From NCBI GenBank assembly GCA_026395685.1, contig JAPLYG010000006.1, positions 4,943-68,942 of the forward strand: a stretch of DNA of 64,000 nucleotides, read 5' to 3'. The DNA is from Candidatus Parcubacteria bacterium (GTDB taxonomy: Bacteria > Patescibacteriota > Patescibacteriia > CAIXNZ01). The notes beneath the pieces were generated by a model, which had not been told where the DNA came from, did no database searches, and saw only the letters and a program-made list of their open reading frames with translations. Made by a program: the position numbers and the translations under genes. This document shows, piece by piece, positions 8,743 through 61,101 of this stretch; the first letter of the stretch is position 1, and every line of letters starts with the position of its first letter.

Positions 8743-8743
8743 A

Positions 8744-28050: not shown

Positions 28051-28071
28051 TCAACCCAAAGGAGAAATAAG

Positions 28072-28746: not shown

Positions 28747-28773
28747 CATCAGGGGAGCGGACTAAGGATAGTC

Positions 28774-29296: not shown

Positions 29297-29322
29297 TAAA
29301 AAGGGGAGAGATTGCTAAAAGC

Positions 29323-29385
29323 AACCTCCCCGCCTAAATTGAGTCTTTTTCCAAGGGAAGAAGCTTCAAAAGTAGGTTAAGTTCA
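29323..29385 (+). repeat. Cassette junction core, copy 3 (terminal)
   Basis: ctccccgcctaaattgagtctttttccaagggaagaagcttcaaaagtaggttaagttc. Confidence 0.6.
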
Positions 29386-29427
29386 TAAAATTAAACAATC
29401 TTAATTACATTATTAATTATAAATAAT

Positions 29428-34403: not shown

Positions 34404-34430
34404 TTTTTTAAATTAAAATGTAGATATATT

Positions 34431-35000
34431 TAAGTCTAAAGTATAAAGGCTAAAGTCTAAGTTTTAGGAAGTTTTTTTGTTAAGTCTAAAGTATAAAGGC
34501 TAAAGTCTAAGTTTTAGGAAGTTTTTTTGTTAAGTCTAAAGTATAAAGGCTAAAGTCTAAGTTTTGGAAGTTTTTATTAAATTTAGGCTTTAGTCTTTTC
34601 TTTGTTTTCTATGGTTAAAATTGATTTTGAAAATATCAATGTTAGTTCATGAGCTTCTTGCCATAATTTTTGGCAATCATTTTTAAGTTCGGGAATTGCT
34701 TTAGAAATTAAATCCAGCCAATATTTAGATTCCTTTGCTTCCTTTTTACAAATATATAATTTATTTTTAAAATCACGCTTTGAACATGCGCCATTTGCTT
34801 CGCAGTAATTAGCTCCAACGCTGGTTACAGCTCGCACCAATTGGCTGATGAGAGGAAGAGTAATTACTGTTTTGGGGATTATACTTGCAAAAATGATAAT
34901 TTCTTCGCTGAATTTTTTTGTTCTTTCTTCTAGGTTATTAGGCATTTTAATATAAATTCATTAATTTAGCCTTTAGAACTTAGCCTTTAGACTTTGAATT
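34431..35000. mobile_element. MITE-like element carrying a four-helix-bundle gene (GTCTAAAG/CTTTAGAC inverted-repeat family). The left end has 3 x 50-bp tandem repeats.
   Basis: Three tandem copies of taagtctaaagtataaaggctaaagtctaagttttaggaagtttttttgt at 34431-34580. The inverted arm ...tagcctttagaacttagcctttagactt is at 34964-35000. Confidence 0.55.
34583..34945 (-). CDS. Four-helix-bundle protein (23S rRNA intervening-sequence protein family, TIGR02436-like)
   Basis: The motif YCEANGACSKRDFKNKLYICKKEAKESKYWLDL is characteristic of the family. The protein is about 85% identical to the ORF at 49751. Confidence 0.7.
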   Translation of the reverse strand: MPNNLEERTKKFSEEIIIFASIIPKTVITLPLISQLVRAVTSVGANYCEANGACSKRDFKNKLYICKKEAKESKYWLDLISKAIPELKNDCQKLWQEAHELTLIFSKSILTIENKEKTKA

Positions 35001-37236: not shown

Positions 37237-37899
37237 ATGCCTGGTAAAATAACACCAGGGTTTTATATTATGTTTTATCTTTTGGGGATCATTTTGATTT
37301 TAACTGTTATCCTATTGGTGCTTTATTATTCGGGTTTGTATGCAATAACTTTTTATTTTGCCTGGCTGGTGATTATCTGCACATATATTGTGCTTTTTTT
37401 TCTGATTATTCATTTATACCGAGTTTTTTTCAAAGGTTATGCTCCCTATATCCGCACTTCAGGGGAGCTAATAAAAAGAGTTATCGGGGAAATAGACTTT
37501 AAAGAAGGGGCCTCTGTTTATGAGCTTGGCTGCGGGGACGGACGTTTTTTACGCGCCTTAGCAAAACAAAAGAATATTAGGGCAGTCGGCTTTGAAAATT
37601 TTTTACCCCCATATTTACTCGCCCAGCTTTTTAATTTATTCAGCGCAAAAAAAATTAAGATTGTATTCAGTGATTTTTTTAAAAAGGATTTAAGCCAGGC
37701 TGATTATATTTTTTGTTATTTATTGCCCAGGAGCATGGATGTTTTGGAACAAAAGCTGCAGCGCGAATTAAAGCCTGGCGTTCTGGTTATTTCCAATACA
37801 TTTAAATTTAAGAATTGGCCGCTGGAAAAGGAGATTCTTTTATCCGGCAGTAAATACAGCAAATTAAGCAGTAAAATATATTTATATCGTAAAATTTAA
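37237..37899 (+). CDS. Membrane-anchored class I SAM-dependent methyltransferase
   Basis: Two N-terminal TM helices. Motif I VYELGCGDGRF. Confidence 0.6.
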   Translation: MPGKITPGFYIMFYLLGIILILTVILLVLYYSGLYAITFYFAWLVIICTYIVLFFLIIHLYRVFFKGYAPYIRTSGELIKRVIGEIDFKEGASVYELGCGDGRFLRALAKQKNIRAVGFENFLPPYLLAQLFNLFSAKKIKIVFSDFFKKDLSQADYIFCYLLPRSMDVLEQKLQRELKPGVLVISNTFKFKNWPLEKEILLSGSKYSKLSSKIYLYRKI

Positions 37900-37939
37900 G
37901 TTAATGTCCAAGCTCCGTGCTTTTTGATATAATTAAGCT

Positions 37940-39553
37940 ATGGGAAAATGGCAAACATTAGCATTACGAGTCAAAAGACTGATTAGCCATAATCAGTTTA
38001 TTTTATATTTGGGAGTTTTTATCTTTTCTTTTTTGCTCTATCTTATGATTCAGTCCAGCCCGACATTTTTGGATCCGGATTCATTTTACCATTTAAAAAT
38101 GATTAAGCTGATTTCTGAGCAGGGGCCGATTATAAATTTCCCCTGGCTGCAATTTACCGTGCTGAAGGATTTTTACATTGATCATCATTTTTTATACCAT
38201 GTGTTGGGTGTGCCGTTTATTTGGCTTTTGGGCGATTTTAGCGGCTATAAATTTTACACCATTTTGCTTAACAGCCTTTTTGTGGTGCTCTGTTATGCGC
38301 TCTTAAAAAAAGAAGGCATTAAGTATCCGTCAATTTATGCTTTTTTAATTCTAACAACCAGTGGTTTGTTGTTTCGCATCTCACTTGCTAAAGCAATTTC
38401 CAGCTCTCTGATTTTAAGCTTTTTAACAATATATTGTCTTTTTAGCCGTAAAAAGTGGCTGCTTTATTTCATCTCCTGGCTTTATGTCTGGACATACGGC
38501 GGCTTTTTACTGGCCTGGGTTATCACCGGATTTTATTGTTTAAGCCAGGGATTTTATTCTGCCTGGATAGAGCCAGGTAGTCAGGAAAATAAGCACGATC
38601 ACAAGCTTGCCCGCTTTTTAGTTGCAACTTTTAGCAAGGATAATTTGCAGCTGATGATCGCCACAATTAGCGGTGTTATTACCGGGATTATTGTCAATCC
38701 TTATTTTCCGCGCAATATTAAGTTTGTCTGGCAGCAATTGGTGCAAATAGGCATTATTAATTACCGGGGCGCTGTTAATGTGGGCGGTGAATGGTATCCG
38801 ATAAAAGCTACGGAGTTAATTACTTCCTTAGGCGGTACTTTTATTCTGGCAATTTTTGCTTTGGCAGTATTTTTTGCCTTTATAAAAAAACAGGAAAAGC
38901 ATACAATATTTTTCTTTTTTAGCAGTTTGTTTTTTTTCGCTTTGACCTTGAAATCCAGGCGCTATGTGGAATACTTTGTCCCATATTTAATATTCTTTAT
39001 AGCTTATAGCCTTAATTACCTTTTATCCGCCTTTAACTGGAAAAAAATAATCAGGGAACTAAAAGAAGCCAGCCGGATTATCCCGATACTATTTTATCTT
39101 ACTGCTATTTTGGTGCTTGTCTTTGTGCCGGCCATCAATATCAAAGATGTATATCATAATTATGTGTCGTTTAAAAGAGGCTATCAGTTTGATACTTATG
39201 CCGGCGTTTCCCAATATTTAAAGGAAAATTCTCAGCCAGGTGAAATAATAATGCATACTGATTGGGATGATTTTCCCCATCTTTTTTATCACAATTCCCA
39301 GAATTATTATATTGTGGGGCTTGATCCGACTTTTATGTATAATTATGACCGCAAGCTTTATCAGCTTTACGCGGATATTACTATGGCGAAAATAAGCGAT
39401 AATTTATCCGAGCTTATTAAGGATAATTTTAAGGCCAAATATTTTATCGTGCAAAAGGGCCGGGAAGCCCTGCGCCAAAATTTGCAAAAGGACTCGAATT
39501 TTATTAAGGTATATGAAGATAAGGATGCTTGGTTGTATATGATTAAATATTGA
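37940..39553 (+). CDS. GT-C-fold integral-membrane glycosyltransferase, possibly oligosaccharyltransferase/STT3-AglB-like
   Basis: About 13 TM helices. DPDSFYH sits in the first extracytoplasmic loop, in the position of the acidic catalytic motif of GT-C enzymes. Confidence 0.45.
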   Translation: MGKWQTLALRVKRLISHNQFILYLGVFIFSFLLYLMIQSSPTFLDPDSFYHLKMIKLISEQGPIINFPWLQFTVLKDFYIDHHFLYHVLGVPFIWLLGDFSGYKFYTILLNSLFVVLCYALLKKEGIKYPSIYAFLILTTSGLLFRISLAKAISSSLILSFLTIYCLFSRKKWLLYFISWLYVWTYGGFLLAWVITGFYCLSQGFYSAWIEPGSQENKHDHKLARFLVATFSKDNLQLMIATISGVITGIIVNPYFPRNIKFVWQQLVQIGIINYRGAVNVGGEWYPIKATELITSLGGTFILAIFALAVFFAFIKKQEKHTIFFFFSSLFFFALTLKSRRYVEYFVPYLIFFIAYSLNYLLSAFNWKKIIRELKEASRIIPILFYLTAILVLVFVPAINIKDVYHNYVSFKRGYQFDTYAGVSQYLKENSQPGEIIMHTDWDDFPHLFYHNSQNYYIVGLDPTFMYNYDRKLYQLYADITMAKISDNLSELIKDNFKAKYFIVQKGREALRQNLQKDSNFIKVYEDKDAWLYMIKY

Positions 39554-39555
39554 AT

Positions 39556-39745
39556 GGGTTATGGTAAGGATACTGGTAAGTAAATGGCGTTAATTACTTA
39601 ACCTAAGCACATAACACATACTAGCATCATTACCAACTCACTTTTCACTAGTAAATGAGGTTATGGTAAGGATGCTGGTAAGTGATATGGTAAAGTGTTG
39701 GGTGTTTACATTTTCTACTTACCATAGCTCTAGAATCTACCAGCT
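39556..39745. repeat. Family H hairpin elements, two tandem degenerate copies
   Basis: ggttatggtaaggatactggtaagta...ctagcatcattacc and gttatggtaaggatgctggtaagtg...cttaccatagc. Confidence 0.4.
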
Positions 39746-39776
39746 TTTTTACCAAATCACATAATACTTTTTGTCT

Positions 39777-40499
39777 ATGAAGGTACTAATTGTTTTGCCA
39801 GCATATAATGAGGCTAAGATAATCCGCGAAAACACGGAGAAGCTTTTGGATTTTGTGCAGAAAAATTTATTGGACGACCAGATCCAGATTGTGATTGCTG
39901 ATAATAATTCAAAAGATCAGACCAGCGCAATCGGCAAAGAGCTGGCAGCCAAGTCTGATCAGATAGCTTATGAATTTGTGGCTGAGCAGGGCAAGGGCCA
40001 TGCAGTTTTATCGCCCTGGCTGAAGATGGAGGAGTTTTTTGATATATTTATCTTTATGGATGCTGACCTGGCAACTGATTTGCAGGATTTGCCTTATTTA
40101 ATTTTTGGCATAAAGCAAGGCTTTGATCTGGTGATCGGATCGCGCCGTCTTTCCGAATCTAAAGTTAATAAATCCATTAGCCGGCATATTTTTTCCTCGT
40201 GTTACCATTGGGTATTAAAAATATTATTAGGTACAAAAATAAATGATTTGCCCTGCGGTTTCAAGTCAATCAATCGCCGCGCGCTTAAAGACTTGGTTCC
40301 TTTGATAAAGGATCGTTCCTGGTTTTTTGACAGCGAACTTGTTTATCTGGCGGAAAAAAAAGGCTATAAAATAAAAGAGATTCCTGTAAAATGGCAGGAA
40401 CCTCGGCAAGGAGATGACAAAAGCCGGGTTAATCTCTGGAAAGTATCCTGGCTATATTTAAAGCGGGCTGTCCAGCTAAAGTTCAGAAAAATCAGTTAA
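39777..40499 (+). CDS. GT2 polyprenol-phosphate glycosyltransferase (Dpm1/GtrB-like)
   Basis: VLPAYNEA...IVIADNNSKD..., a DAD motif (FMDADLA), then later SR...F. Confidence 0.7.
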   Translation: MKVLIVLPAYNEAKIIRENTEKLLDFVQKNLLDDQIQIVIADNNSKDQTSAIGKELAAKSDQIAYEFVAEQGKGHAVLSPWLKMEEFFDIFIFMDADLATDLQDLPYLIFGIKQGFDLVIGSRRLSESKVNKSISRHIFSSCYHWVLKILLGTKINDLPCGFKSINRRALKDLVPLIKDRSWFFDSELVYLAEKKGYKIKEIPVKWQEPRQGDDKSRVNLWKVSWLYLKRAVQLKFRKIS

Positions 40500-42369
40500 T
40501 GGTCGCCTCACCAATAATGGTAATTTGATCAAAATTATTTTCCAGATTGTTAAGCTGGTTAAAAGTTGCGCCAGCACTTCCGGTAATGGTAAATTTTTTA
40601 AAATCATCAAATCCGAAGAAATTTATTTTTATCAATTGTCCCGGCTGCCAGGCGCTGGTCGGTAAAATTTCATAACCCAAAGGCAAATAAGTATCATTGA
40701 TTTTGATCAGATAATTCTGAGTGATCGGCTGCAGCCCCTTAAAATACAGGGAAACAAAACCATTGTTTTTTTCAGCGCCCAAAAATTCAATCATGCCGCC
40801 TAAGTCTTGTTTTTCAACTTTTAGTGACTCAGGTAACAAGGCTGGCGTCTCATATAATTTGTAAAGGCTTTCGCCTTTATTTTTTTGCCATAGTACTAGA
40901 GTTTTATCGACCTTAACCAGGGTATAATTTGCCAAAAGGTCTCTTAAGCGGTCATCCCCTAAATAAAAATCTTCTTTAAATGTCTTGCCATTGGCATAGG
41001 CATGTTCATAATAAATAAAAGTATCATAATTAAAAAAGATGTAAGGTAAATCATCAGGCAAAGGATAATCTCCCATTTTATATTGGCGTTTATTTAAAAA
41101 GCCGTATAAGGCATAATATAGGCCGGGCCTGCTGGAAAGCGGTGTCAAAAATTCATTGGTGGTCATAACATTTTCTCCGGCTGCTATTTTTTTGAGAAAT
41201 TCTGTTTTGCGGTGAACTTCCTGATAGTCAGTAGCATAGAGCGATTTGATAAAGGGTAAAAGCGGAGATTGAAAAATAAAATTGTAGCTAAGGGCAACGG
41301 TTAATAAAATATAGGGCAATTGGAAAAATTCGCGGCATAAATCAATAAATTTTCGGGAAGAAGATAATTTTTTTAAGCCAAAGATTGCGGCAATAAAAAA
41401 AGCAGGTAAAAGCAGAGAATTATAATGCGCGCGTATAAAAACCGTTCCGGTATTTGGTCCTAAGACAAATTCTAAGGCAGGGCCAAGGCAGAGCAGTAAA
41501 TATTTGGGACGAAAAAGGGGCAGTAGTAAAAAGAAAACTATTAAACAAAAAGCCGCCTCATAATGAGTGCAGTTTGAAAATATGTGTTTGAGCACGTCGG
41601 GAAATCTGAGAAAAAAATTTGCCAGTATTTCCTGTAAAGAATTGCCCAGCCAGGAGTAATAGACTAAAAATTTATAATTTTCAGCATTGGCAAAATAAGA
41701 GGAGATTTTAAGCGCGCTAAAAAAATATGCAGTTGAGGCAATAAGCGGGGTTAAAATCCAATAAATCTTTTTTTTATCAAGAATGGCCAGGACGCCGAAC
41801 ATAAAGATTATAAAACTCACGTCTTCCCGCACCAGAAGCGCAAGCGCGCAAAAAATTATAAAGGGTTTAAGCTTATTTTGATCATAAAAATAAAAAGCAA
41901 AAAGCACAAAAAAGGTTAACAGCGGTAAAATATGGAATTCAAAGATCGACTGATAAAGAATCAGGGGATTGAAAAGATAAAGACAGATTATAAAAAAAGT
42001 ATTTTTGGGTGAAAGATGCTTTTGGCAAATCAGAAAAAGGGGTATCACTGTTAGCGCCATAAAACAGGCTTGCATAAATACTAATGTCAAAGGATGCGGA
42101 ATCAGAGAATAAAAAGGAACAAGAAAAAAGATAATTATTTCAAAATGGTCGCCCAAATAAGAAGCGCCATGAAAAGAAAATTCAAACCAGCGGCCGTGCA
42201 TAGAATTAAAAAAGACTTGGTTATAAATAGCCAAATCCAGGCAAATGTATTTGTAGGTAAAATACTTAAACAGGCAAATGGCAAAAATGAAAATTACAAA
42301 AAACAGCATTAGAATCCAGGTGATTTTTGTCAATTTTGGCCAGGTTAAGTTGTCTAAATATGAAAACAT
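40492..42369 (-). CDS. DUF2079-like polytopic membrane protein, putative GT-C glycosyltransferase
   Basis: CLDLAIYNQVFFN and GASYLGDHF motifs. About 12 TM helices plus a ~250-aa C-terminal extracytoplasmic domain. Confidence 0.45.
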   Translation of the reverse strand: MFSYLDNLTWPKLTKITWILMLFFVIFIFAICLFKYFTYKYICLDLAIYNQVFFNSMHGRWFEFSFHGASYLGDHFEIIIFFLVPFYSLIPHPLTLVFMQACFMALTVIPLFLICQKHLSPKNTFFIICLYLFNPLILYQSIFEFHILPLLTFFVLFAFYFYDQNKLKPFIIFCALALLVREDVSFIIFMFGVLAILDKKKIYWILTPLIASTAYFFSALKISSYFANAENYKFLVYYSWLGNSLQEILANFFLRFPDVLKHIFSNCTHYEAAFCLIVFFLLLPLFRPKYLLLCLGPALEFVLGPNTGTVFIRAHYNSLLLPAFFIAAIFGLKKLSSSRKFIDLCREFFQLPYILLTVALSYNFIFQSPLLPFIKSLYATDYQEVHRKTEFLKKIAAGENVMTTNEFLTPLSSRPGLYYALYGFLNKRQYKMGDYPLPDDLPYIFFNYDTFIYYEHAYANGKTFKEDFYLGDDRLRDLLANYTLVKVDKTLVLWQKNKGESLYKLYETPALLPESLKVEKQDLGGMIEFLGAEKNNGFVSLYFKGLQPITQNYLIKINDTYLPLGYEILPTSAWQPGQLIKINFFGFDDFKKFTITGSAGATFNQLNNLENNFDQITIIGEATIN

Positions 42370-42547
42370 CGCTAATTTTAGGTAAATTATATGTTAATTC
42401 TAGCATATATTATAAGAAAATAAAACAACAGATATTGACATTTGTCTCCAAATGTGCTATTATAATAAGTACTTAAAGATAAAGAACGTTTTTTCCTATA
42501 ATCACATTAACCCAAAACAATCTGCCAAGGGCAGAGGAGGAAAAATC

Positions 42548-43126
42548 ATGAACAAGAAGATCATCGTTCTGTTGGCCTGCTTCGCAATCATCCTGTCCCA
42601 GGCCTGCGCCACCACCGTGGTGCGTCCGAATAACGGCGGCGTGGTCGTTGATACGATGGATCCGAAAGTCGCTCGCGACGCGGCCTCGCCCAACTCCAAC
42701 TACGCGACTCCGCTCGAGAATGCCTGCGCCGAACTCGTTCGGCAGGGCAAGGCCTCGTACATCCAGACTCCGGAGGGCACCAGGTGCATCGTGCACAATG
42801 GCAAGCCCGCTCCCGGCGAAACCCCTTCGCCGTTGGGAAAGACACAGAAGGGCGCCTTTGAAAACATCGGCAGCCATACCATCATGATCGAGGTCTACGA
42901 TGAAATCGGGATCAAGATCTCCAGCTTCACGCTCTTTCCCAAGGGCAACAAGGATGGCAAGGATGTGCGCGTCATGGACTTGGTGCCGGGCAAGTATCAC
43001 TACACTGCCCGGTATACCAGCAGCAACAAGTCCGCGGGCTTTGACTTGCCCATCGACACCCAGCCGTGTCCTGACTGCCATGTCTCGAACGGCACGACGG
43101 TGGAGTGGCGGGAAGTCGTCCGCTAA
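42548..43126 (+). CDS. GC-rich lipoprotein. Hypothetical.
   Basis: Lipobox ILSQAC. GC is roughly 60%. Upstream is TTGACA-17-TATTAT and a leader hairpin ctgccaagggcag before AGGAGG. A terminator follows at 43152-43180. Confidence 0.55.
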   Translation: MNKKIIVLLACFAIILSQACATTVVRPNNGGVVVDTMDPKVARDAASPNSNYATPLENACAELVRQGKASYIQTPEGTRCIVHNGKPAPGETPSPLGKTQKGAFENIGSHTIMIEVYDEIGIKISSFTLFPKGNKDGKDVRVMDLVPGKYHYTARYTSSNKSAGFDLPIDTQPCPDCHVSNGTTVEWREVVR

Positions 43127-43184
43127 AAAAAGCGGCAAAAATAAGAGGGTCTCACCCGGGACCCTCTTTTTCTTTTTGTTTAAA

Positions 43185-43619
43185 TTATTCAGAAATGACT
43201 TGTTGTGGAGTGCCTCCGTCGCCTTGCGATGCATAATAAAGAGCATTTAAGACATAGCTGGAAATAGCATAAGCTGAGATTATGATTACCAGGCCGATAA
43301 CCGCCTGGGTAATTACGGCCTTGGCTTTTTTAATTTTTTCTTCAGTGCCCATGGCAGTCATCCAGGTATAGCCGCCATAGATCATCAGGATAACAAAGAC
43401 AATTCCCAAAATTCCAAGCGCGGCGTTTATAACTTTGGCAATTAAGCTAAAAATATTAGTCGGTTGCTCTGACCCAAAAGCTGCCGATCCGAATTTTTGA
43501 ACTCCGCTGCTTATGGGCGTTGAGTCTGTCGGAGGAGTTGTTGCCTGAGCTAAAAGAGGCAATATTAAGCTGACTGCCAAAATAAGGATAATAAGAAATT
43601 TCACATTTAAAATTTTCAT
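43185..43619 (-). CDS. TrbC/VirB2-type (T4SS-like) pilin, paralog 1
   Basis: A signal peptide, a variable region, then TM1 ending in YGGYTWMTAMGTEEK...KAK..I..AVIGLVIIISAY, which is TM2. Confidence 0.65.
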   Translation of the reverse strand: MKILNVKFLIILILAVSLILPLLAQATTPPTDSTPISSGVQKFGSAAFGSEQPTNIFSLIAKVINAALGILGIVFVILMIYGGYTWMTAMGTEEKIKKAKAVITQAVIGLVIIISAYAISSYVLNALYYASQGDGGTPQQVISE

Positions 43620-43652
43620 AAATATTTTGTTAGGAAAAAATGATAGATTAGA

Positions 43653-44018
43653 TTATTTAGCGGCAAGCTCCAGGGCAGTGGTGATAAAATAAGCCAGACT
43701 ATAGGAAACAATAATAATTACAATACCGATTACAGCATATTTAATTATATTTTTCGCCTGCTCTATTTTTTTTGCATCACCCCTTGCGAGCATATAAGTG
43801 GTACCGCCATAAAGCAATAAAACAATAAAGACTATGCCCAAGACACCCAAGACACCCTGAACAATATTGCCGGCGATAATGTTTACATCTCTTTCTCCGC
43901 TATAACCCGTGTCCTCTATTGTTTTATTGAGTGATTCGGTAAATCTTGAAGCAAGGGCCAAATTAGCAGAAAAAATAAGAGTAATCAGGGCTAGGCAAAT
44001 TATAATTTTTTTAAGCAT
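43653..44018 (-). CDS. TrbC/VirB2-type pilin, paralog 2
   Basis: LLYGGTTYMLARGDAKKIEQAKNIIKYAVIGIVIIIVSYS. The start is ambiguous (M at 44018 or at 44033, or the tracked 44063). Confidence 0.6.
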   Translation of the reverse strand: MLKKIIICLALITLIFSANLALASRFTESLNKTIEDTGYSGERDVNIIAGNIVQGVLGVLGIVFIVLLLYGGTTYMLARGDAKKIEQAKNIIKYAVIGIVIIIVSYSLAYFITTALELAAK

Positions 44019-44022
44019 AAAT

Positions 44023-44412
44023 TTAAGAGGCATTTTCCAAAAGAGTCGTGATAAAATAAGCAATTGAATAAGATGCGATGATAATAATCAGGCCGATGAC
44101 AGCGCTAATAATAATTTTGCGCGCCTTGGCGGCCTTTTCTTCCGAGCCGGATGCGGTCATATATTGGAATCCGCCATAAATTATTAAAATCACAAAAACC
44201 AGGCCGAGAAGAGAAAAAAGAACCTGGACTGCCGTGCCTATAAATACGGCCAGATCGGTTTCACCTTTGACGCCTGCCTGAGAAGCGGTGGCATCAAGAT
44301 TAGGATTAATATTTTTCAGGCCTTGTGCCTGGCTATAATGCAGCGGGCAGGCTAGGGTAATAAATAAAAAAAACGCAAGAATAAGACAAGAAAGTAAGGA
44401 TTTAAATTTCAT
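44023..44412 (-). CDS. TrbC/VirB2-type pilin, paralog 3
   Basis: IIYGGFQYMTASGSEEKAAKARKIIISAVIGLIIIIASYS. Confidence 0.65.
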   Translation of the reverse strand: MKFKSLLSCLILAFFLFITLACPLHYSQAQGLKNINPNLDATASQAGVKGETDLAVFIGTAVQVLFSLLGLVFVILIIYGGFQYMTASGSEEKAAKARKIIISAVIGLIIIIASYSIAYFITTLLENAS

Positions 44413-44423
44413 AGATTTAAAAA

Positions 44424-44822
44424 TTATTGAATCGGTGTGCTTTCTGTTTGGGCGCTTTTCTCAAGGGAATTGGCAATGAAAGCTGTTGTGGCATAGGCGG
44501 AAATAATTATCACAATGCCGATTACTGCTGTTTTAAAGACTTTTTTGGCTTTATCGATTTTATTTTTATCAGCGCCAGACTCTGAAGTCATCCAGAGAAA
44601 TCCGCCATAAAGCATAAGCACGGCAAAAAGTACGCCAACCAGGCTTAATACGGCTTTAATCATTCCGGCAATAAATAAAGAATAGTCGGTTCCCGTCTCA
44701 TAGCCGATTGCCTGGCCGGAAGACTCGAAGTTTTTCTGAGCATCAGAAAAACCCTGAGCTAGGCAAATGCAGGGCAAAAGGATAGAAAGGCAAATAAGGG
44801 TAATTAATAAATATTTTTTCAT
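44424..44822 (-). CDS. TrbC/VirB2-type pilin, paralog 4
   Basis: MLYGGFLWMTSESGADKNKIDKAKKVFKTAVIGIVIIISAYA. Confidence 0.65.
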   Translation of the reverse strand: MKKYLLITLICLSILLPCICLAQGFSDAQKNFESSGQAIGYETGTDYSLFIAGMIKAVLSLVGVLFAVLMLYGGFLWMTSESGADKNKIDKAKKVFKTAVIGIVIIISAYATTAFIANSLEKSAQTESTPIQ

Positions 44823-44828
44823 AATATA

Positions 44829-45191
44829 TTAGGCTGTAAGAACACTGAAGATAAAGGCGGTAATGGAATAGGAGGCGGCAATAATAGTAACTCCGATTAT
44901 TGCCCAATAGAGGATTTTTTTTCCTTTAGTAAGACGCTCTTCATTGCCGGCGGCTGTCATTATGATTATTCCGCCATAGATGATAAAAAACAGAAAAATA
45001 GAACCTGTCAGGGACAGAGCGGCTCCGATTATTTGTCCGAAATACGTCGGCAAATCACCTTGAGGCAAAACAGTTTGATTTACTGTCTGGTTGAGATTGT
45101 CTAAGGGCGTTTGGGCTAAACAAAAGATACCAGGTATTAAAAAAAGATTAAGCAAAAGCAGTGTCAAAATTATCAAAGCTGTTCGGGGCAT
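44829..45191 (-). CDS. TrbC/VirB2-type pilin, paralog 5
   Basis: IIYGGIIIMTAAGNEERLTKGKKILYWAIIGVTIIAASYS. Confidence 0.65.
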   Translation of the reverse strand: MPRTALIILTLLLLNLFLIPGIFCLAQTPLDNLNQTVNQTVLPQGDLPTYFGQIIGAALSLTGSIFLFFIIYGGIIIMTAAGNEERLTKGKKILYWAIIGVTIIAASYSITAFIFSVLTA

Positions 45192-45197
45192 AGTTTT

Positions 45198-45581
45198 TTA
45201 TTGGCTCAGGGCTCCGAAAATAAAGGAAGTTATGGCATATGAAGCCGCTAAAATAGCAGCGCCAATTACAGCCCAGGTAATTACTTTTTTCCCTTTTTCC
45301 ACCCGGTCGCTTCCGGCAGAGGTCATTATCATGACTCCGCCATAAATTATTAAAAATAAAAAGATGGAGCCTGATAAGGCCAGCCCTGCGCCGACTACCG
45401 AGCCCAAAAACTCAGGAACAGAGACATCTTTTTTTAAGCCGCTTTGCGTGCCAGTCTCTTCCAGCCCATAGCCTCCTGTATCAGCGGGCGCATCAGTTGT
45501 TGCCTGCGCCAGATTGATAAAGGGAAGTGTCAGGGCTCCGAAAAGCAGGAGAGAAAGTAATAATAAAGAAAATTTGCGCAT
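45198..45581 (-). CDS. TrbC/VirB2-type pilin, paralog 6 (closest to paralog 5)
   Basis: IIYGGVMIMTSAGSDRVEKGKKVITWAVIGAAILAASYA. Confidence 0.65.
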   Translation of the reverse strand: MRKFSLLLLSLLLFGALTLPFINLAQATTDAPADTGGYGLEETGTQSGLKKDVSVPEFLGSVVGAGLALSGSIFLFLIIYGGVMIMTSAGSDRVEKGKKVITWAVIGAAILAASYAITSFIFGALSQ

Positions 45582-45728
45582 AAAAGTAGATTAAACATTT
45601 GGCCATTATGTCCGGCCAATGTCGTGATTAGAAATTGGAATTTATTGCTCTAAGGCAAGATGTTCCAAGCTCCAATCTGCAAAAAAGGGGAGCAGAAAAC
45701 TTTCCACTCCCCGCAAATATTCTAACTT

Positions 45729-46109
45729 TTAGGTAGTAGCAGAATAAAGTGCATTCAAGACAAACTGAGCGATTGCATAGGCACAAACGATAATTACCAA
45801 GCCGATAACACCCTGAATAATTAAGGTTTTTGCTTTTTTTACTGCTTCATCATTGCCCAAAGCAGTCATCCATTTAAAGCCGCCGATCAGGATAATGACC
45901 ACAGCAACTACGCCCAATAAAGCCATGGCGCTATTAATGATTCTGGCTGCAGTTGCGCGAATGTCAGCTGTTGCTAAGCTTGTTGACGCGGCAAATGATC
46001 CCAGGTTATTAAGCTGAAATTCTGGGTCAGCTGCATTAATAACTGCAGGAGCGACTAAGATGCCAAACAAGGCAATGAAAACTGCTAGACTTAATAAGAT
46101 TTTTTTCAT
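45729..46109 (-). CDS. TrbC/VirB2-type pilin, paralog 7
   Basis: ILIGGFKWMTALGNDEAVKKAKTLIIQGVIGLVIIVCAYA. Confidence 0.65.
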   Translation of the reverse strand: MKKILLSLAVFIALFGILVAPAVINAADPEFQLNNLGSFAASTSLATADIRATAARIINSAMALLGVVAVVIILIGGFKWMTALGNDEAVKKAKTLIIQGVIGLVIIVCAYAIAQFVLNALYSATT

Positions 46110-46272
46110 GTTTTTTAGTCCTTTTTAGTAATGCCCGGCTCGTTTTATATTCCGAACATTAAAATTAATTAGTAAATATTTAATTTTTAACTTTCAAAGA
46201 AACTATTCTCTTATCTTATTATAGCAAAAATGCTGTAAAACAAGCAATTATTTATTAACAGCCAAGGGTAAG

Positions 46273-46728
46273 CTATTCAGCTTCAAGCAGCGGCTTATTG
46301 CTTTCATCTTTCGGGGTTTGCGACCCTTGCTGTGATAAGGCGCCGATGATATATGAAACCATAACATAAGACCCAAAGATTACGACCAGGCCGATTGAAG
46401 CCCAAATCAGGGCGTTTTTGCCCTTAGTGATTTTGGTGGCATCACCCTGGGAAATGAGCATTAAAAATCCGCCATAAACGAAAATGATTAAGGCAATGGA
46501 TCCGACAATGCCTAAAGCGACCTGGATAATCAAACCAACGATTTGAGGAATAGTCAGATCAGGATTAACCGGACTGATAGTGCTCAAGTCAACTACAGTT
46601 GACGAAGATGACTGGTCATTGGAAGTTTCAGCCGGAGGCGTGCTGTCGGCAAAAGCAATGCCAACGGGAGCAAGAAGCAAAGTCATAAGCACAAGCGAGA
46701 AGAAAAGGAGGGATAATAGTTTTTTCAT
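46273..46728 (-). CDS. TrbC/VirB2-type pilin, paralog 8 (Ser/Thr-rich N-terminal variable region, acidic C-terminal tail)
   Basis: FVYGGFLMLISQGDATKITKGKNALIWASIGLVVIFGSYV. Confidence 0.65.
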   Translation of the reverse strand: MKKLLSLLFFSLVLMTLLLAPVGIAFADSTPPAETSNDQSSSSTVVDLSTISPVNPDLTIPQIVGLIIQVALGIVGSIALIIFVYGGFLMLISQGDATKITKGKNALIWASIGLVVIFGSYVMVSYIIGALSQQGSQTPKDESNKPLLEAE

Positions 46729-46839
46729 AAAGTAAAATAATAATTATTTAGGAAATAGTCTTTGTTTCGAATTCAGAAGGGGCTCTGAGAAAATTTGCCG
46801 GCTATTCCCGGTAACGAAGCTATATTGCTTCAGGCATTT

Positions 46840-48228
46840 TTACCGGGTCTGAATAGGTTTAGGTGCCGGGGGAACAAATCCAGCAGGCACACAGGTATAA
46901 AGCCACATACTTTTAGAAATGCATTCATCACTGCTACCTGCGCCTTCGCCGATTTTGCCCTGTCCGCACATATTTAAATTATTAGTCAGGCACTTTAGTC
47001 CGCCTTGGCAGTCGTCATTATTATTACATTTTGTGGCAATTGTTCCTGGCTGGCAGCGATTAGCTATAGGGGAAAAATCATCAAAAGCGCATTTCGGCGC
47101 TGAAACTCCTGCATAGCTGACTCCTACGCAATCGGCATCACTGTCACAATCACACCAACCACCCACCTTCATTTGCTCAAAATTTTCCGGTACGCAAGTT
47201 TTTGATGTTCCAGAGGAAAGGTTAACAGAACCAGTTGCGTGTGTGCAATGATTTGTTGCCCAGCATGCATCTTCATTATTCTCGCAGTAACGTTGCTGAT
47301 ACTCTCCTAAGCATTTATAGCCTGTAGGGCATTCTGCATCATCATTGCATGGAGAAAAAGGCTTGCCATCAGGCACGCAGTTATTGCCCCAATCAGTCTG
47401 GCAATGGAAGCCCACGGCGCAATCAGTGTCATCCCCTCCGCAGGGTGTGCCTAAATAGCCATAAGAACAGTGATTAAGCCAATTTCTTTGGCAGAATAAG
47501 GGGGATTGGCAGTCTGTATTGTTATCACAAGGGGCGCCTAACCCGCCTTTAAGTTGTAGATTTTTTATACATTTTCCTCCGGAGCATAAGCCATCACAGC
47601 ATTCTCTGTGATCCGTACAAACAGCATTTTCCGGCTTACAGCTGCCACAGTCCCAGAGCGAAGTAAGGGCATCATAAGTGCAGACTGTTCCGGTTACGGT
47701 ACATAACTTGCCGATACATTGATTACCGTCACCATCAGTATAAGGATCTCCGCAGTTTTTTGTTTGATCTTCCAAGCATTTATTTTGATTTTCCTGCCTT
47801 GCCGAATCATCTTCTGCTATTACCAATTCCGGTAAGCCGGGCATGGGCGCGCATTTTAGAGTAATGTTCCAGTCAAAACGATCTTTTTCAGTCAGGCTAT
47901 TAACCACAAAAGCGACAATGATATAGGCTAAAAAGGTGATCAGCAGTCCGATTATAGAATTAATCAGAATTTTTTTGCCCGTGTCTATTTTTCCGCTTTC
48001 ACCACCGGAAGTCAGCAAAATAAAACCGCCATAAACAAACATCAGCATAACTAAACTGCCGACAATGCCCATGAGGATGGTGCCGATCTTTAAAAAAGTA
48101 TTGACTATATCGCACAGGCTGCAGATGCCGGAAGAAGCGCAGGCCGGCAGAATAGATTCAACTGCGCTGGCCGGTAGAGCAACTGCAAGGGCGCATAAAA
48201 TAATCAAGCCCAATAAGATTTTTTTCAT
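46840..48228 (-). CDS. Pilin-domain protein fused to a ~330-aa Cys-rich extracellular domain (putative pilus-associated adhesin)
   Basis: An N-terminal 110 aa of pilin type (FVYGGFILLTSGGESGKIDTGKKILINSIIGLLITFLAYI). Then more than 50 Cys in repeated C..D.DC and G..C motifs. Confidence 0.6.
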   Translation of the reverse strand: MKKILLGLIILCALAVALPASAVESILPACASSGICSLCDIVNTFLKIGTILMGIVGSLVMLMFVYGGFILLTSGGESGKIDTGKKILINSIIGLLITFLAYIIVAFVVNSLTEKDRFDWNITLKCAPMPGLPELVIAEDDSARQENQNKCLEDQTKNCGDPYTDGDGNQCIGKLCTVTGTVCTYDALTSLWDCGSCKPENAVCTDHRECCDGLCSGGKCIKNLQLKGGLGAPCDNNTDCQSPLFCQRNWLNHCSYGYLGTPCGGDDTDCAVGFHCQTDWGNNCVPDGKPFSPCNDDAECPTGYKCLGEYQQRYCENNEDACWATNHCTHATGSVNLSSGTSKTCVPENFEQMKVGGWCDCDSDADCVGVSYAGVSAPKCAFDDFSPIANRCQPGTIATKCNNNDDCQGGLKCLTNNLNMCGQGKIGEGAGSSDECISKSMWLYTCVPAGFVPPAPKPIQTR

Positions 48229-48288: not shown

Positions 48289-49677
48289 TTATTCAGCCAA
48301 AGAACCGTTGATCTGGCTGGTTGCATCAGCCAGCAGCTCTTTTGTTTCTTTAGTGCCGGCCAGATTATTTTTTATCAGATTTTTCAGGGCTTGTTCCGCT
48401 ATTTCAGGATGAGCTCCCTTATACCAGCTTTTGGCAGTTAAAGTTTGCTTGCCAAACGCGGAGAAGTATAAGTCATCTTCAAAAACATTTAACAGCGATC
48501 TTAAAGCTGCCGGCTTTTTGGCGTCAGCTGTTGTCAGATATTTTTTATTGGCTTCTTCATTGGTAGCCATGAATAATATAATATCCCAGGCAACATCTTT
48601 GTATTTTGATTTTTTAGATACCCCCTCAGCCCAATAATTAGCAAAATTTACCGGCCGGTCTGTCAGCTGAGGCACCGGCGCAATGTCAAATTTTAAACCC
48701 TGATATTGGGTTTTTATTAAATTAAATTCATAGGCATAGCCCAGATAAAAGGCGATGGTACCATTGCCAAAGGCTTCGAGCGCATTGGGCATATCCGCAT
48801 CCCAGATAAAGTTTTCATTGCTGGGCGAGGCAAAACTATTATAAAAATTAAGGGCATTGGCCGCAATCAGTTCTTTGCCGGTTACAGTCGAGGGATTAGC
48901 ATTCAGATATGTGCGGCCGTTAGTATAAGCGATGGGATGGCCGGACTGGTAAAAAAGTAAAGATAAAATGTCAGTTGCTCGGCTGATATTATTGCTTGTT
49001 CCCAGGGCTCCGCCGGATTGGACAATTTCTCCCTTGTCATTTTGCTTGGTCATGCTGATAGCGTCTTGCTTAAAAGTCTCCCAGTCTGCAGGCGGTGTCT
49101 GTATGCCGGCATTATTCAGTAAATCACGGTTATAATATAAAACCAGGGTGTCGATGCTCAAAGGCAAACCGTAAATTTTATTATTTATTACCTGATTATC
49201 AGTGACAACATCGGGGAAAAGAGTTTTTAAATCATTGAGCGAAAGTGTATTCTTGATATTTGCTTTAGTATAGATTTGTTTTTTAAAAGTGCCTGACTCG
49301 AAGGCAGATTGCGTGGTAATTTGTTCCGGCAACGGAGAAAGGTAATCAATAAATTGTTTCATGGCTGTGGTATGGACTGAAAAAATATCAGGGCCGTTGT
49401 CTTTGGCAAAACTGGTGATCAGCGCCTGATTGTATTGCGCTGCGGTTTCCTGGCGATATTTTATCTGCACATGGGGATTTTTTTTGCTGTATTCTTGCAG
49501 CAGAACTTTGGTGGCAGAATTATCATTCCAGGATACAGACCAGTAATTAATAGTAATCGGATCCGGTGATCCTTCCTTAATTGCTCCATTGGGCAAGCCT
49601 CCGCACTTGGCGCCGCTGGTAATTAAAAAAGCAAAGAGTAAGAGAACGATAGTAATTTTTTTGTTTGGGTTTTTCAT
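48289..49677 (-). CDS. ABC transporter substrate-binding lipoprotein (family 1, sugar or oligosaccharide type)
   Basis: Lipobox ITSGAKC. SBP_bac_1-like N-lobe (ITINYWSVSW...QETAAQYNQALITSFA). Confidence 0.7.
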   Translation of the reverse strand: MKNPNKKITIVLLLFAFLITSGAKCGGLPNGAIKEGSPDPITINYWSVSWNDNSATKVLLQEYSKKNPHVQIKYRQETAAQYNQALITSFAKDNGPDIFSVHTTAMKQFIDYLSPLPEQITTQSAFESGTFKKQIYTKANIKNTLSLNDLKTLFPDVVTDNQVINNKIYGLPLSIDTLVLYYNRDLLNNAGIQTPPADWETFKQDAISMTKQNDKGEIVQSGGALGTSNNISRATDILSLLFYQSGHPIAYTNGRTYLNANPSTVTGKELIAANALNFYNSFASPSNENFIWDADMPNALEAFGNGTIAFYLGYAYEFNLIKTQYQGLKFDIAPVPQLTDRPVNFANYWAEGVSKKSKYKDVAWDIILFMATNEEANKKYLTTADAKKPAALRSLLNVFEDDLYFSAFGKQTLTAKSWYKGAHPEIAEQALKNLIKNNLAGTKETKELLADATSQINGSLAE

Positions 49678-49687
49678 AGTTTTACAA

Positions 49688-50185
49688 TAAGTCTAAAGTT
49701 TAAAGTCTAAAGACTAAATCAAGTCTAAAGTATTAAGTCTAAAATTTTTATTATTTAGACTTTTCTTTGTTCTCGATTGTTAATATAGATTTAGAAAATA
49801 TTAAAGTTAATTCGTGAGCTTCTTGCCGGAGCTTTTGGCAATCCTCTTTGATCTCCGGATTTGCTTTTGAAATCAAGTCTAACCAATATTTTGATTCTTT
49901 CGCCTCCTTTTTGCAAATATAAAGTTTATTTTTAAAATCTCGCCGTGAACAAGCTCCATTTGCCTCGCAATAATTGGCACCTATACTCGTAACAGCCCTA
50001 ATTAGCTGGCTTATTAGAGGTAAATTTATTATCGTTTTAGGAATTTTTTTAGCGAATACTATTATATCATCACTGAATTTTTTAGTTCTTTCTTCTAGGT
50101 TGTTAGTTGCCATTTATTTAAATTAATCTTCCAAAATTTAGCCTTTAGCTCTTAGCCTTTAGACTTTAGGATTTAGCTCTAAATT
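49688..50185. mobile_element. MITE-like element carrying a four-helix-bundle gene (GTCTAAAG family), second copy
   Basis: Left side agtctaaagtttaaagtctaaagactaaatcaagtctaaagtattaagtctaaa. Right side tagcctttagctcttagcctttagactttaggatttagctctaaa. Confidence 0.55.
49751..50113 (-). CDS. Four-helix-bundle protein (23S rRNA IVS protein family), paralog of 34583
   Basis: YCEANGACSRRDFKNKLYICKKEAKESKYWLDL. Confidence 0.7.
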   Translation of the reverse strand: MATNNLEERTKKFSDDIIVFAKKIPKTIINLPLISQLIRAVTSIGANYCEANGACSRRDFKNKLYICKKEAKESKYWLDLISKANPEIKEDCQKLRQEAHELTLIFSKSILTIENKEKSK

Positions 50186-51045
50186 TTTGTATTAAGGTAG
50201 GCCTTGAAGTCTTTACCTAAATCCGCACGTTCTAAGGCGAAGTCAACATTGGCCTTGAGCCAGCCAAGTTTAGAGCCTGTATCATAGTATTTGCCTTCAA
50301 CTAAGCAGGCGTAGATCGGACGTTTTTTTGACAGATTAAAAATGGCATCCACCAGCCAGAGTTCATTGCCTTGGCCGATTTTTGTTTTTTCCAGGATTTC
50401 AAAAATATCAGGAGTCAGCACATAAGCGCCGATTGTGCCGATCAGGCTGGGCGCTTTTTCCGGGCCGGGCTTTTCCATTATTTTTTTTATTTGGTAAACT
50501 TTGGGATCAACCTTAATGCCGTCAATTACCCCGTATTTTTTAGTGCCTTCTTTATCAATGCTAATTGCCGATAAAATAGGATCCTGATATTTATTATAAA
50601 TATCAATCAGTTGCTTTAGGCGCGGTTTGCCCTTATTAACAAAAAGATCATCGCCCCAGATAACGGCAAATGGTTCGTCCCCGATTATTTTTTTGGCATT
50701 TAAAACAGGAGTGCCGTTGCCATAAGGTCCTTTTTGGCGGATATAAATAAAGTTCGCCATATCCGCAATATTTTTTATTTCTTCTCTGAGCTCATCTTTG
50801 CCCTGTTTTTTTAGCCAGGTCTGCAGTTCGTAATTATAATCAAAGTGATCTTCAATCGCTCTCTTGGATGCGCCGGTAACTAAAATAATATCTTCAATGC
50901 CTGAGGCGACTGCTTCTTCCACAATATATTGAATCACTGGTTTATCAATAATCGGCAGCATTTCTTTGGGCATGGCTTTGGTAGCGGGTAAGAAACGCGT
51001 GCCAAAACCGGCAACAGGAATAATGCATTTTTTGATGGTGGACAT
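50179..51045 (-). CDS. galU: UTP--glucose-1-phosphate uridylyltransferase
   Basis: KCIIPVAGFGTRFLPATKAMPKEMLPIIDKPVIQYIVEE is the GalU N-terminal signature. The start is at the ATG at 51043-51045. Confidence 0.85.
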   Translation of the reverse strand: MSTIKKCIIPVAGFGTRFLPATKAMPKEMLPIIDKPVIQYIVEEAVASGIEDIILVTGASKRAIEDHFDYNYELQTWLKKQGKDELREEIKNIADMANFIYIRQKGPYGNGTPVLNAKKIIGDEPFAVIWGDDLFVNKGKPRLKQLIDIYNKYQDPILSAISIDKEGTKKYGVIDGIKVDPKVYQIKKIMEKPGPEKAPSLIGTIGAYVLTPDIFEILEKTKIGQGNELWLVDAIFNLSKKRPIYACLVEGKYYDTGSKLGWLKANVDFALERADLGKDFKAYLNTKI

Positions 51046-51301
51046 AGGTAGCACGAATTAACACGAATTTTTACTAATTCATGTCTAAAATTACATTTAA
51101 ATTATACCACAGAACTGCTTTAAATTGAACAAAATGAGAGGGGGATAAAAATGTTCTTTTGTCTGTTCATTGTCATCCCGGGGGTTTAAGGATCTGTAAG
51201 GTTCTTTTCTCAAGATACAGCTATGACGATAAAAATAGTTATTCTCTTAATTTCAAATAAAAAAATGCCCGCTCAGTGTTGAACGGGCAAGGATCGCGGG
51301 A

Positions 51302-60714: not shown

Positions 60715-61101
60715 TTATGCCTGTTTTGCCGGCACATTGGCAGGATTAGTTGCCTTTAACCAGCCACCCAGCATTTTGCCTAAGCTATCAAGACTTTCGT
60801 GAATTTCTCCGTATTTATTATCAGATAACTGTTTTACATCTTTAGCCATATCAGCAAAGACTTTTAGGGTATCAAGTTTGCGCATCGCTTGTTTTAAGGT
60901 GCCAAACTTGTCTGTTTTGCTCTGTCTGGTGGCAATAACTATTAATTCCAATATTTCCAAAACCGTGATTTCAGAGCTTTTTCTTAAGGTATTATCTTCG
61001 CTTTTAGCCATATCTGCGCACTGCTGATATAGATTGTAAGAACGATCTAAAATAGGGAATTTTTCTGAAAAATTGTCTAAAATGTCTTTTGATTTTTGCA
61101 T
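60715..61101 (-). CDS. Hypothetical helical protein
   Basis: 128 aa, predicted all-alpha. Terminator aaaaccttcctattcccaccggaaggtttt downstream. Confidence 0.4.
   Translation of the reverse strand: MQKSKDILDNFSEKFPILDRSYNLYQQCADMAKSEDNTLRKSSEITVLEILELIVIATRQSKTDKFGTLKQAMRKLDTLKVFADMAKDVKQLSDNKYGEIHESLDSLGKMLGGWLKATNPANVPAKQA

Follow-up and report, generated by a model that had tools for sequence, protein, structure and literature searches.

Patescibacteria, which live attached to the cells of their hosts, may account for a large part of bacterial diversity, and the mechanism by which they recognize these hosts is still being sought. The locus described here raises a question that bears on this search: why would a pilin gene be extended by a cysteine-rich (Cys-rich) region of about 340 residues? 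We analyzed a stretch of 64,000 nucleotides (nt) from the ultrasmall Candidatus Parcubacteria bacterium (assembly GCA_026395685.1, contig JAPLYG010000006.1, positions 4,943 to 68,942 of the forward strand; hereafter, the window), in which the gene at 46840–48228 on the (−) strand encodes a VirB2-like pilin module of the family PF18895 (T4SS_pilin; T4SS, type IV secretion system) followed by a Cys-rich C-terminal domain (C-domain). The gene leads an array of plain pilin genes, and its Cys-rich domain differs strongly between strains whose pilin cores are nearly identical. We consider the chances about even that it encodes a specialized minor pilin of the Patescibacterial VirB2-like (PF18895) system, which displays a swappable candidate host-binding domain on the cell surface.

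The fusion gene leads an array of nine pilin genes

The ORF list and the translation revealed that positions 46840–48228 (−) form one unbroken open reading frame (ORF) of 462 amino acids plus stop, and the protein sequence is identical to that of NTZ49_01380 ("hypothetical protein") from the NCBI metagenome-assembled genome (MAG) of Candidatus Parcubacteria bacterium. The array consists of nine genes on the (−) strand, and all nine proteins match PF18895. The initial annotation had placed the fusion gene at the distal end of the array, but on the (−) strand, on which the array is read, it is the first and promoter-proximal gene. The array is laid out as follows:

46840..48228 (−), leader pilin gene, complete, 462 amino acids plus stop (ORF list, translation)
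43185..46728 (−), eight plain T4SS_pilin paralogs downstream of the leader, 120–151 amino acids each, all matching PF18895
43143–43168, terminator-like hairpin at the 3′ end of the array

The array of the window (43185–48228, (−) strand) proved collinear, gene by gene, with those of two related loci, L002 (2199–7517) and L010 (1140–6676); the ortholog pairs are 1 to 1, 4 to 3, 5 to 4, 6 to 6, 7 to 7, and 8 to 9, and their cores are 55–93% identical. Because the three arrays are collinear, the paralogs are old, distinct subunits, with an ortholog group for each position, and not a recently amplified repertoire for variation. Gene 2 carries a 180-residue Cys-rich N-terminal extension in L002 and L010 and only a short Ser/Thr/Pro-rich one in the window.

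The N-terminal module is a complete T4SS pilin

The part of the leader that precedes the Cys-rich domain comprises the following features:

48163..48228 (−), Sec-type signal peptide, residues 1–22, likely cut after ALPASA (ALPASA/VES); read from the sequence and aligned with the eight paralogs
48109..48162 (−), short mature N-terminal segment with C30, C36, and C39, which are invariant in the subfamily
47905..48108 (−), pilin core with two transmembrane helices and a Lys-rich loop (VYGGFILLTSGGESGKIDTGKK); PF18895 and AlphaFold2 (AF2)

Specifically, PF18895 matched residues 41–108 with 36.5 bits (E 5e-9; profile positions 5–71 of 71), above its gathering score of 26.6 bits, and the AF2 model showed a helix over the signal-peptide region (residues 2–32) and two helices in the core (38–73 and 78–114), the latter with a predicted local distance difference test (pLDDT) score of 84–90. 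The layout of the family is present in full, i.e., a signal peptide, two hydrophobic helices, a short basic loop, and a YGG...(M/L)T...G...K motif, which bears out the initial claim of a complete pilin module at the N-terminus. On realignment with the eight paralogs, VYGGF is kept, and LT stands in place of MT, a conservative substitution that some of the paralogs show as well; the fused module has therefore not lost the motif. Residues G57, G67, G68, K85, I93, G94, and Y102 are conserved with respect to the eight paralogs and the pilins of L002. The fusion protein had no match to PF04956 (TrbC/VirB2), and one paralog (43653–44063) scored 20.0 bits against this family, below the cut-off of 27.9.

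The known topology of VirB2 and the positive-inside rule would place both termini of such a hairpin outside. Four Cys residues, of which C30, C36, and C39 precede helix 1 and C126 (codon at about 47851–47853, (−) strand) follows helix 2, are invariant in an alignment of five leader pilins, and none of them occurs in the plain paralogs. A disulfide clamp could join the N-terminal segment (C30/C36/C39) to C126 and thereby tie together the extracellular ends of the hairpin, in a way reminiscent of the head-to-tail cyclization of the T and RP4 pilins.

The C-domain is an undescribed arrangement of small disulfide modules

Of the 43 Cys residues in the protein, 39 lie after residue 110 and account for 39 of 352 residues there (11.1%, compared with a mean of 0.70% in 29 other window genes; binomial P ~1e-33). 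The strong enrichment over ~340 residues that had been pointed out initially is therefore genuine, but the number of Cys falls short of the more than 50 estimated for ~330 residues. As regards the spacings that were described, the C..D.DC type is present in five non-overlapping copies of C-x(2-4)-[DN]-x-[DE]-C, and the supposedly repeated CxxC occurs just twice in the whole protein, once within the pilin module. The C-domain is acidic (43 D+E vs 24 K+R), and the region can be divided as follows:

47779..47904 (−), linker, residues 109–150, including C126; pLDDT <50 in both models
46891..47778 (−), predicted Cys-rich ectodomain, residues 151–446, 38 Cys (~19 disulfides); Cys count, homologs, and AF2
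Residues 151–194, 6-Cys module, from the Cys layout
47569..47640 (−), module with knottin (inhibitor cystine knot, ICK) spacing, residues 197–220, C-x6-C-x5-CC-x3-C-x4-C; spacing, weak profile and fold matches
47284..47538 (−), three tandem 4-Cys units, residues 231–315, G-x-P-C-x2-[DN]-x-[DE]-C-x5-C-x7/8-C; Cys spacing
Residues 322–392, less regular central part, from the Cys layout
46891..47037 (−), fourth 4-Cys unit (residues 398–421) and a degenerate fifth unit; alignment columns

Eleven C-domains could be aligned with a mean identity of 36% and ~36 conserved Cys columns. The structure prediction that the initial annotation had proposed yielded a model of moderate confidence (pLDDT 70.2; predicted template modeling score, 0.64) made up of short beta hairpins throughout, in which the tandem 4-Cys units (residues 231–315) are the best-modeled stretch (pLDDT 83–89), and the model had no significant match in the PDB. 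No curated Pfam or NCBIfam family matched the C-domain, and comparison of the fusion protein with PHROGs and NCBIfam returned noise only.

The weak Foldseek leaders for the C-domain were the cysteine-rich domains of Draxin, Dkk1, and Dkk4, colipase, and spider knottins. The ICK spacing at residues 197–220 (CKPENAVCTDHRECCDGLCSGGKC) fits the pattern C-x(3-7)-C-x(3-8)-CC-x(2-6)-C-x(1+)-C and is kept in nine of ten full-length homologs; a profile of the eleven C-domains retrieved the spider ICK toxins 5fzw and 5fzv at E 0.03; and the module superposed locally on Hm1a, SGTx1, and hanatoxin in Foldseek with a root mean square deviation (rmsd) of 1.1–1.5 Å over 24–32 residues, but with E >1. Dickkopf_N (PF04706) aligned with residues 266–307 at 19.9 bits, under its cut-off of 25, and the close pilin-fusion homologs had no Pfam match outside the pilin core, Dickkopf_N included. 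The EGF and TNFR readings can be discarded, as the fusion protein had no Pfam match to either and Foldseek gave E 2–4 for the EGF of Pfs25 and E 5.2 for TNFR1 (1ext), with TM-scores <0.15, worse than for the leaders named above. Hence, of the knottin-, EGF-, or TNFR-like character suggested at first, a weak local resemblance to knottins is left, and the comparison with Dickkopf folds adds only weak, sub-threshold local similarity of the Dickkopf/colipase kind. Pithovirus "transmembrane proteins" in BFVD reached E 3.6e-6 but with TM-scores ≤0.22 and an rmsd >17 Å, which we take to reflect repeated small Cys-rich units and no common fold.

Because no curated family matches and the fold and profile similarities are all weak and sub-threshold, the C-domain is an undescribed arrangement of small disulfide modules that is knottin- or Dickkopf-like in parts and a member of neither family. 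With Dickkopf_N it has the pattern C-x2-D-x-[DE]-C...G-x-x-C in common, but each unit contains four Cys, whereas cysteine-rich domain 1 (CRD1) contains ten. The knottin, Dickkopf, and colipase matches all remain below curated or significance thresholds, the multi-module layout of about 300 residues has no counterpart in the PDB, and the source is a bacterium. The C-domain thus represents an uncurated family of ~300 residues that includes a bacterial knottin-spaced module.

The fusion recurs in other Patescibacteria

We used residues 120–462 as the query of an exhaustive HMMER search, which covered 1.84 billion representatives and found 29 relatives of the C-domain, 10 of which align over the whole domain. 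We found PF18895 N-terminal to the Cys-rich part in 23 of the 32 proteins scanned (the 29 relatives, the window protein, and its alleles P0003 and P0004), most of the others being fragments. The named relatives come from Parcubacteria, Buchananbacteria, Uhrbacteria, and "Patescibacteria group" and are annotated as "pilin" or "hypothetical protein," and the same architecture is present in independent assemblies from NCBI, JGI, ENA, and Logan. A search of genome contigs with the full protein gave no match, and neither did a comparison of the window's own N-terminal module (N-module) with metagenome contigs. In one further locus (L028, 7808–8926), a mid-array pilin of 372 amino acids has a C-terminus that matches the hidden Markov model (HMM) of the C-domain.

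Cys residues are lost in pairs

C197 and C211, which correspond to the first and fourth Cys of the ICK module and would be partners in the knottin connectivity (C1–C4, C2–C5, C3–C6), are both missing from P0013, and two homologs lack both C345 and C359. In the fifth 4-Cys unit, the first and third Cys (alignment columns 412 and 426) are present in 9 of the 11 sequences and missing only from the window protein and P0005, the relative nearest to it, and this joint loss therefore argues for 1–3/2–4 pairing within the 4-Cys units. Since Cys are lost in pairs, they behave as disulfide partners. The positive-inside rule and VirB2 topology, which put both pilin termini outside, would also make the C-domain extracellular. 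In four lineages, a gene of the DsbA/thioredoxin family (Thioredoxin_4) is situated immediately upstream of a solitary form of the fusion, at the following positions:

L004, 9272–9961, DsbA-like gene; CPDC motif visible, ORF uncalled owing to masked bases
L005/L006, 9276–9974, DsbA-like gene
L007, 1425–2123, DsbA-like gene
L009, 8711–9472, DsbA-like gene

The paired loss of Cys and the DsbA neighbors in relatives together suggest that the domain folds outside the cell in oxidized form. Genomes of the candidate phyla radiation (CPR) have been described as enriched in MdbA-like oxidoreductases (bioRxiv 10.1101/335083). A metal-binding domain of the metallothionein or zinc-ribbon type was considered and rejected on account of the extracytoplasmic placement, the DsbA neighbors in relatives, and the paired Cys loss.

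The C-domain varies between strains with near-identical cores

Three Logan contigs from one study (L001, L002, and L003) contain the orthologous locus. Up to about codon 145, and including the spacer and the adjoining end of the upstream gene, their DNA is 92–100% identical; over the Cys-rich region, the figure is 36–56%, and identity climbs again at the next gene. The 5′ breakpoint lies directly after the codons for ...EPPKVEDR, a position equivalent to the linker of the window protein (residues 109–150). At the protein level, the N-modules are 97% identical; the C-domains are only partly alignable and 29–43% identical. The C-domain of P0002 resembles that of the window protein (full length, E 2e-66) more than those of its sister alleles with near-identical cores (partial, E 2e-13), which speaks for an exchange of domains and against rapid point mutation. 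In a second set, L012 and L014, the leader is 94% identical in the core and 30% in the C-terminal appendage, gene 2 is 97% identical vs 34% in its appendage, and the plain pilins are 91–100% identical. The idea that homologs in related genomes might vary specifically in the Cys-rich domain was therefore confirmed in two independent strain sets.

Within the window, we found no other Cys-rich ORF that could act as a silent cassette and no direct repeats involving 46840–47870; with no silent copies or template repeats there, the donor sequences are not local. The possibility that the gene is the target of a diversity-generating retroelement (DGR) found no support, as there is no template repeat, no reverse transcriptase (RT) among the window ORFs, and the divergence affects the whole domain and is not adenine-specific, although Avd-like genes are present (see below). 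In L005/L006, a gene for an RVT_1 reverse transcriptase of 313 amino acids (251–1192), a size typical of DGR or group II RTs, lies ~9 kb upstream of the solitary fusion pilin P0006.

Cys-decorated pilins are common and tend to head their arrays

Among the core homologs (E ≤1e-10), 24 of 84 carry at least four Cys in an N- or C-terminal appendage, and these appendages are of several unrelated types; ~30% of the pilin-core homologs sampled thus bear Cys-rich appendages that published surveys do not report. We extended this to a census that took in 89 related loci besides the window; these loci came from an alignment-based contig scan, and all were searched with home-made HMMs. The census comprised 279 pilin ORFs, with 84 Cys-decorated ones (at least four Cys in an N- or C-terminal appendage) and 31 of at least 300 amino acids. 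In 18 deduplicated mixed arrays, a decorated gene came first in 16 and last in none, and the mean normalized rank of decorated pilins was 0.15 (0 of 20,000 permutations as extreme). Since a locus entered the census through its resemblance to the core of the leader, this position rule may be inflated; the search did not select for decoration and covered the two flanks to the same extent. Decorated genes at the head of arrays fit a special or minor subunit. The appendages can be larger than, or different from, that of the window: a pilin of 959 amino acids in L046 (3565–6444) has 62 Cys in an N-terminal extension of 830 residues, and the 428-residue leader in L084 (1272–2558) has a different C-domain of 298 residues.

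A minor pilin or another surface protein

If the leader is a specialized minor pilin, its precursor would be exported by Sec and its signal peptide cleaved, as can be read from the sequence, after which the two-helix hairpin would insert into the membrane with both ends outside and the Lys-rich loop inside, in keeping with VirB2 topology and the positive-inside rule. The 340-residue C-domain would be oxidized outside the cell and form a chain of disulfide-locked modules, one knottin-like and several Dickkopf-like 4-Cys units. The core would co-assemble with the eight plain paralogs and place the bulky, acidic domain on the exterior of the filament. The leader would probably be present in low copy number or at the tip, because an appendage of 36 kDa is too bulky for every subunit of a VirB2-type helix and because its gene comes first. 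Finally, the displayed domain would bind a structure on the host-cell surface, and recombination, by swapping the domain while the core stays constant, would tune host or receptor specificity. We infer host or ligand binding from a Cys framework that is conserved while its loops diverge, from the exchange of whole domains between strains, and from the epibiotic way of life in this phylum. Thus, the proposal of the initial annotation that the gene encodes a pilus adhesin or receptor-binding subunit gains from a fusion that is genuine, recurrent, predicted to be extracellular, and variable in this one domain, and it loses from the lack of T4SS machinery in the window.

Several observations weigh against a minor pilin. 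Among the ORFs of at least 110 amino acids in the 64-kb window, none encodes VirB4, VirB6, or VirD4, and the neighbors are genes for a solute-binding protein (SBP), GalU, and glycosyltransferases instead of T4SS components; a DsbA gene is likewise not found in the window. The fusion is solitary, with no array, in four lineages, including Buchananbacteria and Uhrbacteria. A profile of the pilin core recovered no pilin from the PDB sequences. The third Foldseek hit of the core was the conjugation pilus of Aeropyrum pernix (8dfu; TM-score 0.63 on target, E 1.1), and there was no match at E 1e-3, so that the core has no significant structural similarity to any solved conjugative pilin; in such fold comparisons, a helical hairpin is not very informative. 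The C-domain, modeled with only moderate confidence (pLDDT 70), had no Foldseek match in the PDB at E 1e-3 or better, and the recruitment of the census loci tempers the position rule, as noted above. Moreover, no PF18895 filament has been observed experimentally, and the literature speaks of a "potential to elaborate" pili (PMC12857230).

The strongest alternative is a surface receptor or adhesin that forms no polymer, with the hairpin serving as a membrane anchor and the Cys-rich domain reaching through the wall to bind the host or other ligands, perhaps together with the adjacent SBP. It accounts readily for the missing T4SS ATPase and channel genes, the array-less fusions in Buchananbacteria, Uhrbacteria, and other lineages, the conserved envelope genes nearby (SBP, galU, and glycosyltransferases), and the lack of an observed filament (PMC12857230). 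However, the core is conserved in the same pattern as in the plain pilins of 120–150 amino acids, which have no other obvious role, and a simple anchor gives no reason for decorated genes to be embedded in, and to lead, collinear arrays of plain pilins. In addition, a gene for a VirB4-like ATPase (DUF87/AAA_10/P-loop_TraG) lies 8–10 kb downstream of the solitary fusion in L004, L005, and L007. On this evidence, a non-polymerizing anchor is possible but somewhat unlikely.

A structural part, i.e., a rigid wall-spanning spacer, a base or collar, or a stabilizer, whose variability would reflect relaxed constraint or evasion of the phage or immune type, appears quite improbable to us. An elongated chain of small rigid modules with no recognizable binding fold would suit such a part, and Cys-rich extracellular proteins are common in CPR bacteria and have been proposed to give rigidity (PMC4736985), but the replacement of a whole domain next to 97%-identical cores would be unusual for a component that has to fit conserved partners, and a strictly conserved Cys framework with divergent loops is what binding scaffolds show. 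We give even less credence to a polymorphic toxin or released effector, in which the N-module would deliver or anchor the protein and the Cys-knot C-terminus would be cleaved off to act on the host as a knottin-type inhibitor or toxin. A constant N-terminus with a swapped C-terminus is a hallmark of polymorphic toxins, the ICK-spaced module resembles venom peptides, and the linker between core and domain is modeled with low confidence; yet the next genes downstream encode pilins and nothing immunity-like (window, L002, and L010), no toxin or enzyme family matches, an array of several modules over 300 residues has no evident processing site, and appendages occur on either the N- or the C-terminus of the cores, which fits display rather than release. 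Lastly, an assembly or frameshift artifact that joins a pilin gene to a separate, unrelated Cys-rich ORF has, apart from the MAG origin of the sequence, nothing in its favor and is next to impossible given the uninterrupted frame, the recurrence of the architecture in independent assemblies, the pilin core in 23 of 32 relatives, and the breakpoint within a conserved linker.

Relation to known systems

VirB2-like pilin arrays of 2–11 genes have been reported in 383 Patescibacterial assemblies (Quinonero-Coronel et al. 2025, PMC12102498) and found to be essential in Southlakia (Wang et al. 2023, PMC10633639; PMC12102498), while the Patescibacterial T4SS has no assigned function and a pilus is named merely as a possibility (PMC11665869, PMC12857230). 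The array of the window agrees with the published ones in its PF18895 core, its tandem organization (nine genes here), its phylum, and its chromosomal location, here within about 27–30 kb of dnaA and dnaN. It differs from them in that the published pilins are small and sequence-divergent, whereas Cys-rich appendages are found here, and in that it does not lie beside virB4. What is new is a decorated, domain-swapping leader subunit within known Patescibacterial VirB2-like arrays: large Cys-rich pilin appendages, the leading position, and the SBP/galU synteny are unmentioned in PMC12102498, PMC10633639, PMC11665869, and PMC12857230, and strain-level swapping of pilin appendages is unmentioned in PMC12102498 and PMC10633639. 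No PrgB-like adhesins were detected in the Patescibacteria survey (PMC12102498), and in Peribacteria, Cys-rich, strain-variable extracellular proteins were noted, though not on pilins (PMC4736985). The "Pam pilus" (preprint 10.64898/2026.03.03.709456) is an unrelated Ig-fold, donor-strand system, and its description does not cover the pilins discussed here.

The candidate role of the leader, that of a minor, surface-exposed subunit in contact with the target, is also that of the VirB5/TraC tip proteins and PrgB adhesins. Unlike these, which are separate proteins, the leader domain is covalently part of a VirB2-type pilin, and there is no similarity in sequence or fold. Minor pilins with bulky domains are located at the tip in type II secretion and type IV pili (GspK, PilY1, and minor-pilin complexes), and filamentous phages tolerate large inserts on pIII but not on pVIII. 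By analogy, the leader pilin would follow a similar logic, in which a large domain on a polymerizing core goes along with low copy number or a tip position and with binding. Type IV pilins themselves, with a single N-terminal helix and a globular head, belong to an unrelated superfamily with unrelated assembly machinery. A sharp breakpoint, a constant N-module, and a C-domain that is replaceable in near-identical strains are features in common with CdiA-CT, Rhs, and LXG proteins and with the swapping of receptor-binding-protein tips in phages; in contrast to CdiA-CT, Rhs, and LXG, the leader has no immunity gene and no toxin fold, its variable part is a disulfide scaffold, and its carrier is a pilin. 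With its large, predicted extracellular disulfide scaffold, its place at the head of the array, and the replacement of this domain between otherwise identical strains, the leader pilin is a concrete and testable candidate for a host-specificity determinant.

Gene neighborhood and other features of the window

The genes around the array include the following:

48289..49677 (−), solute-binding protein gene, directly upstream of the leader; SBP_bac_1, E 2.5e-25
50179–51054 (−), galU-like nucleotidyl transferase
37237–42369, methyltransferase, STT3/PMT-like polytopic membrane protein (37940–39553), family 2 glycosyltransferase (GT2; 39771–40499), and DUF2079 membrane protein (40492–42369), flanking the array

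An SBP gene (SBP_bac_1/SBP_bac_8, ~460 amino acids) is located directly upstream of the leader and on the same strand in the window, in L002, and in all seven other loci tested (L012, L030, L046, L054, L073, L084, and L087), and in most cases a gene for a galU-like nucleotidyl transferase precedes it. In the window, neither a permease nor an ATPase of the ABC type is encoded beside the SBP gene, and the SBP is apparently an orphan. The galU–SBP–pilin array block seems to be conserved across CPR lineages, and we found no published description of it. On a bolder and rather unlikely reading, galU, the orphan SBP, one or more decorated leaders, and the collinear plain pilins would specify an undescribed heteropolymeric surface organelle whose swappable disulfide-knot cassettes set the host range, possibly independently of a classical T4SS. 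If this were true, the organelle would be a cellular counterpart of receptor-binding-protein swapping in phages, built on a conjugative-pilin core.

Glycosylation of the pilins is a possibility in view of the glycosyltransferase and PMT-like neighbors. The stretch that separates the leader from the remaining pilin genes in other lineages contains genes for a RodZ-like HTH_25 protein, a methyltransferase, a GT2, and a PMT_2-like protein. Directly past the 3′ end of the array, at 42452–43126 (+), an ORF for a lipoprotein-like protein of 224 amino acids, which had no family match, shares with the array the hairpin at 43143–43168 as a bidirectional terminator. This ORF lies in a GC island (58% at 42700–43000 vs a background of ~38%) that may be foreign DNA.

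The window also contains three 23S_rRNA_IVP genes (Avd-like four-helix bundle) and one bAvd-like gene (34430–34995, 49687–50167, 61657–62025, and 60715–61101). Two of the Avd-like copies share 77% identity over 300 nt and have short flanking repeats of the TAAAGTCTAAAG type, among which three tandem copies of 50 nt occupy 34430–34579. In one case, the insertion separates galU from the SBP gene, at a site that is empty in L002, and the Avd-like element looks like a small mobile cassette.

An intergenic repeat family occurs at 7700–7845, 8600–8851, 11626–11770, and 39595–39644. It consists of a terminator-like GGGCGCG...CGCGCCC hairpin with a T run behind it and, ~100 nt further on, a conserved CACTTACYAGCATCC box, and could be a promoter or small-RNA element. 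Furthermore, three direct repeats of 77 nt (27968–29398; 82–100% identical, with spacings of 804 and 550 nt) enclose small ORFs that lack annotation; this region lies immediately upstream of the N6/N4 DNA methylase gene at 29428–30123.

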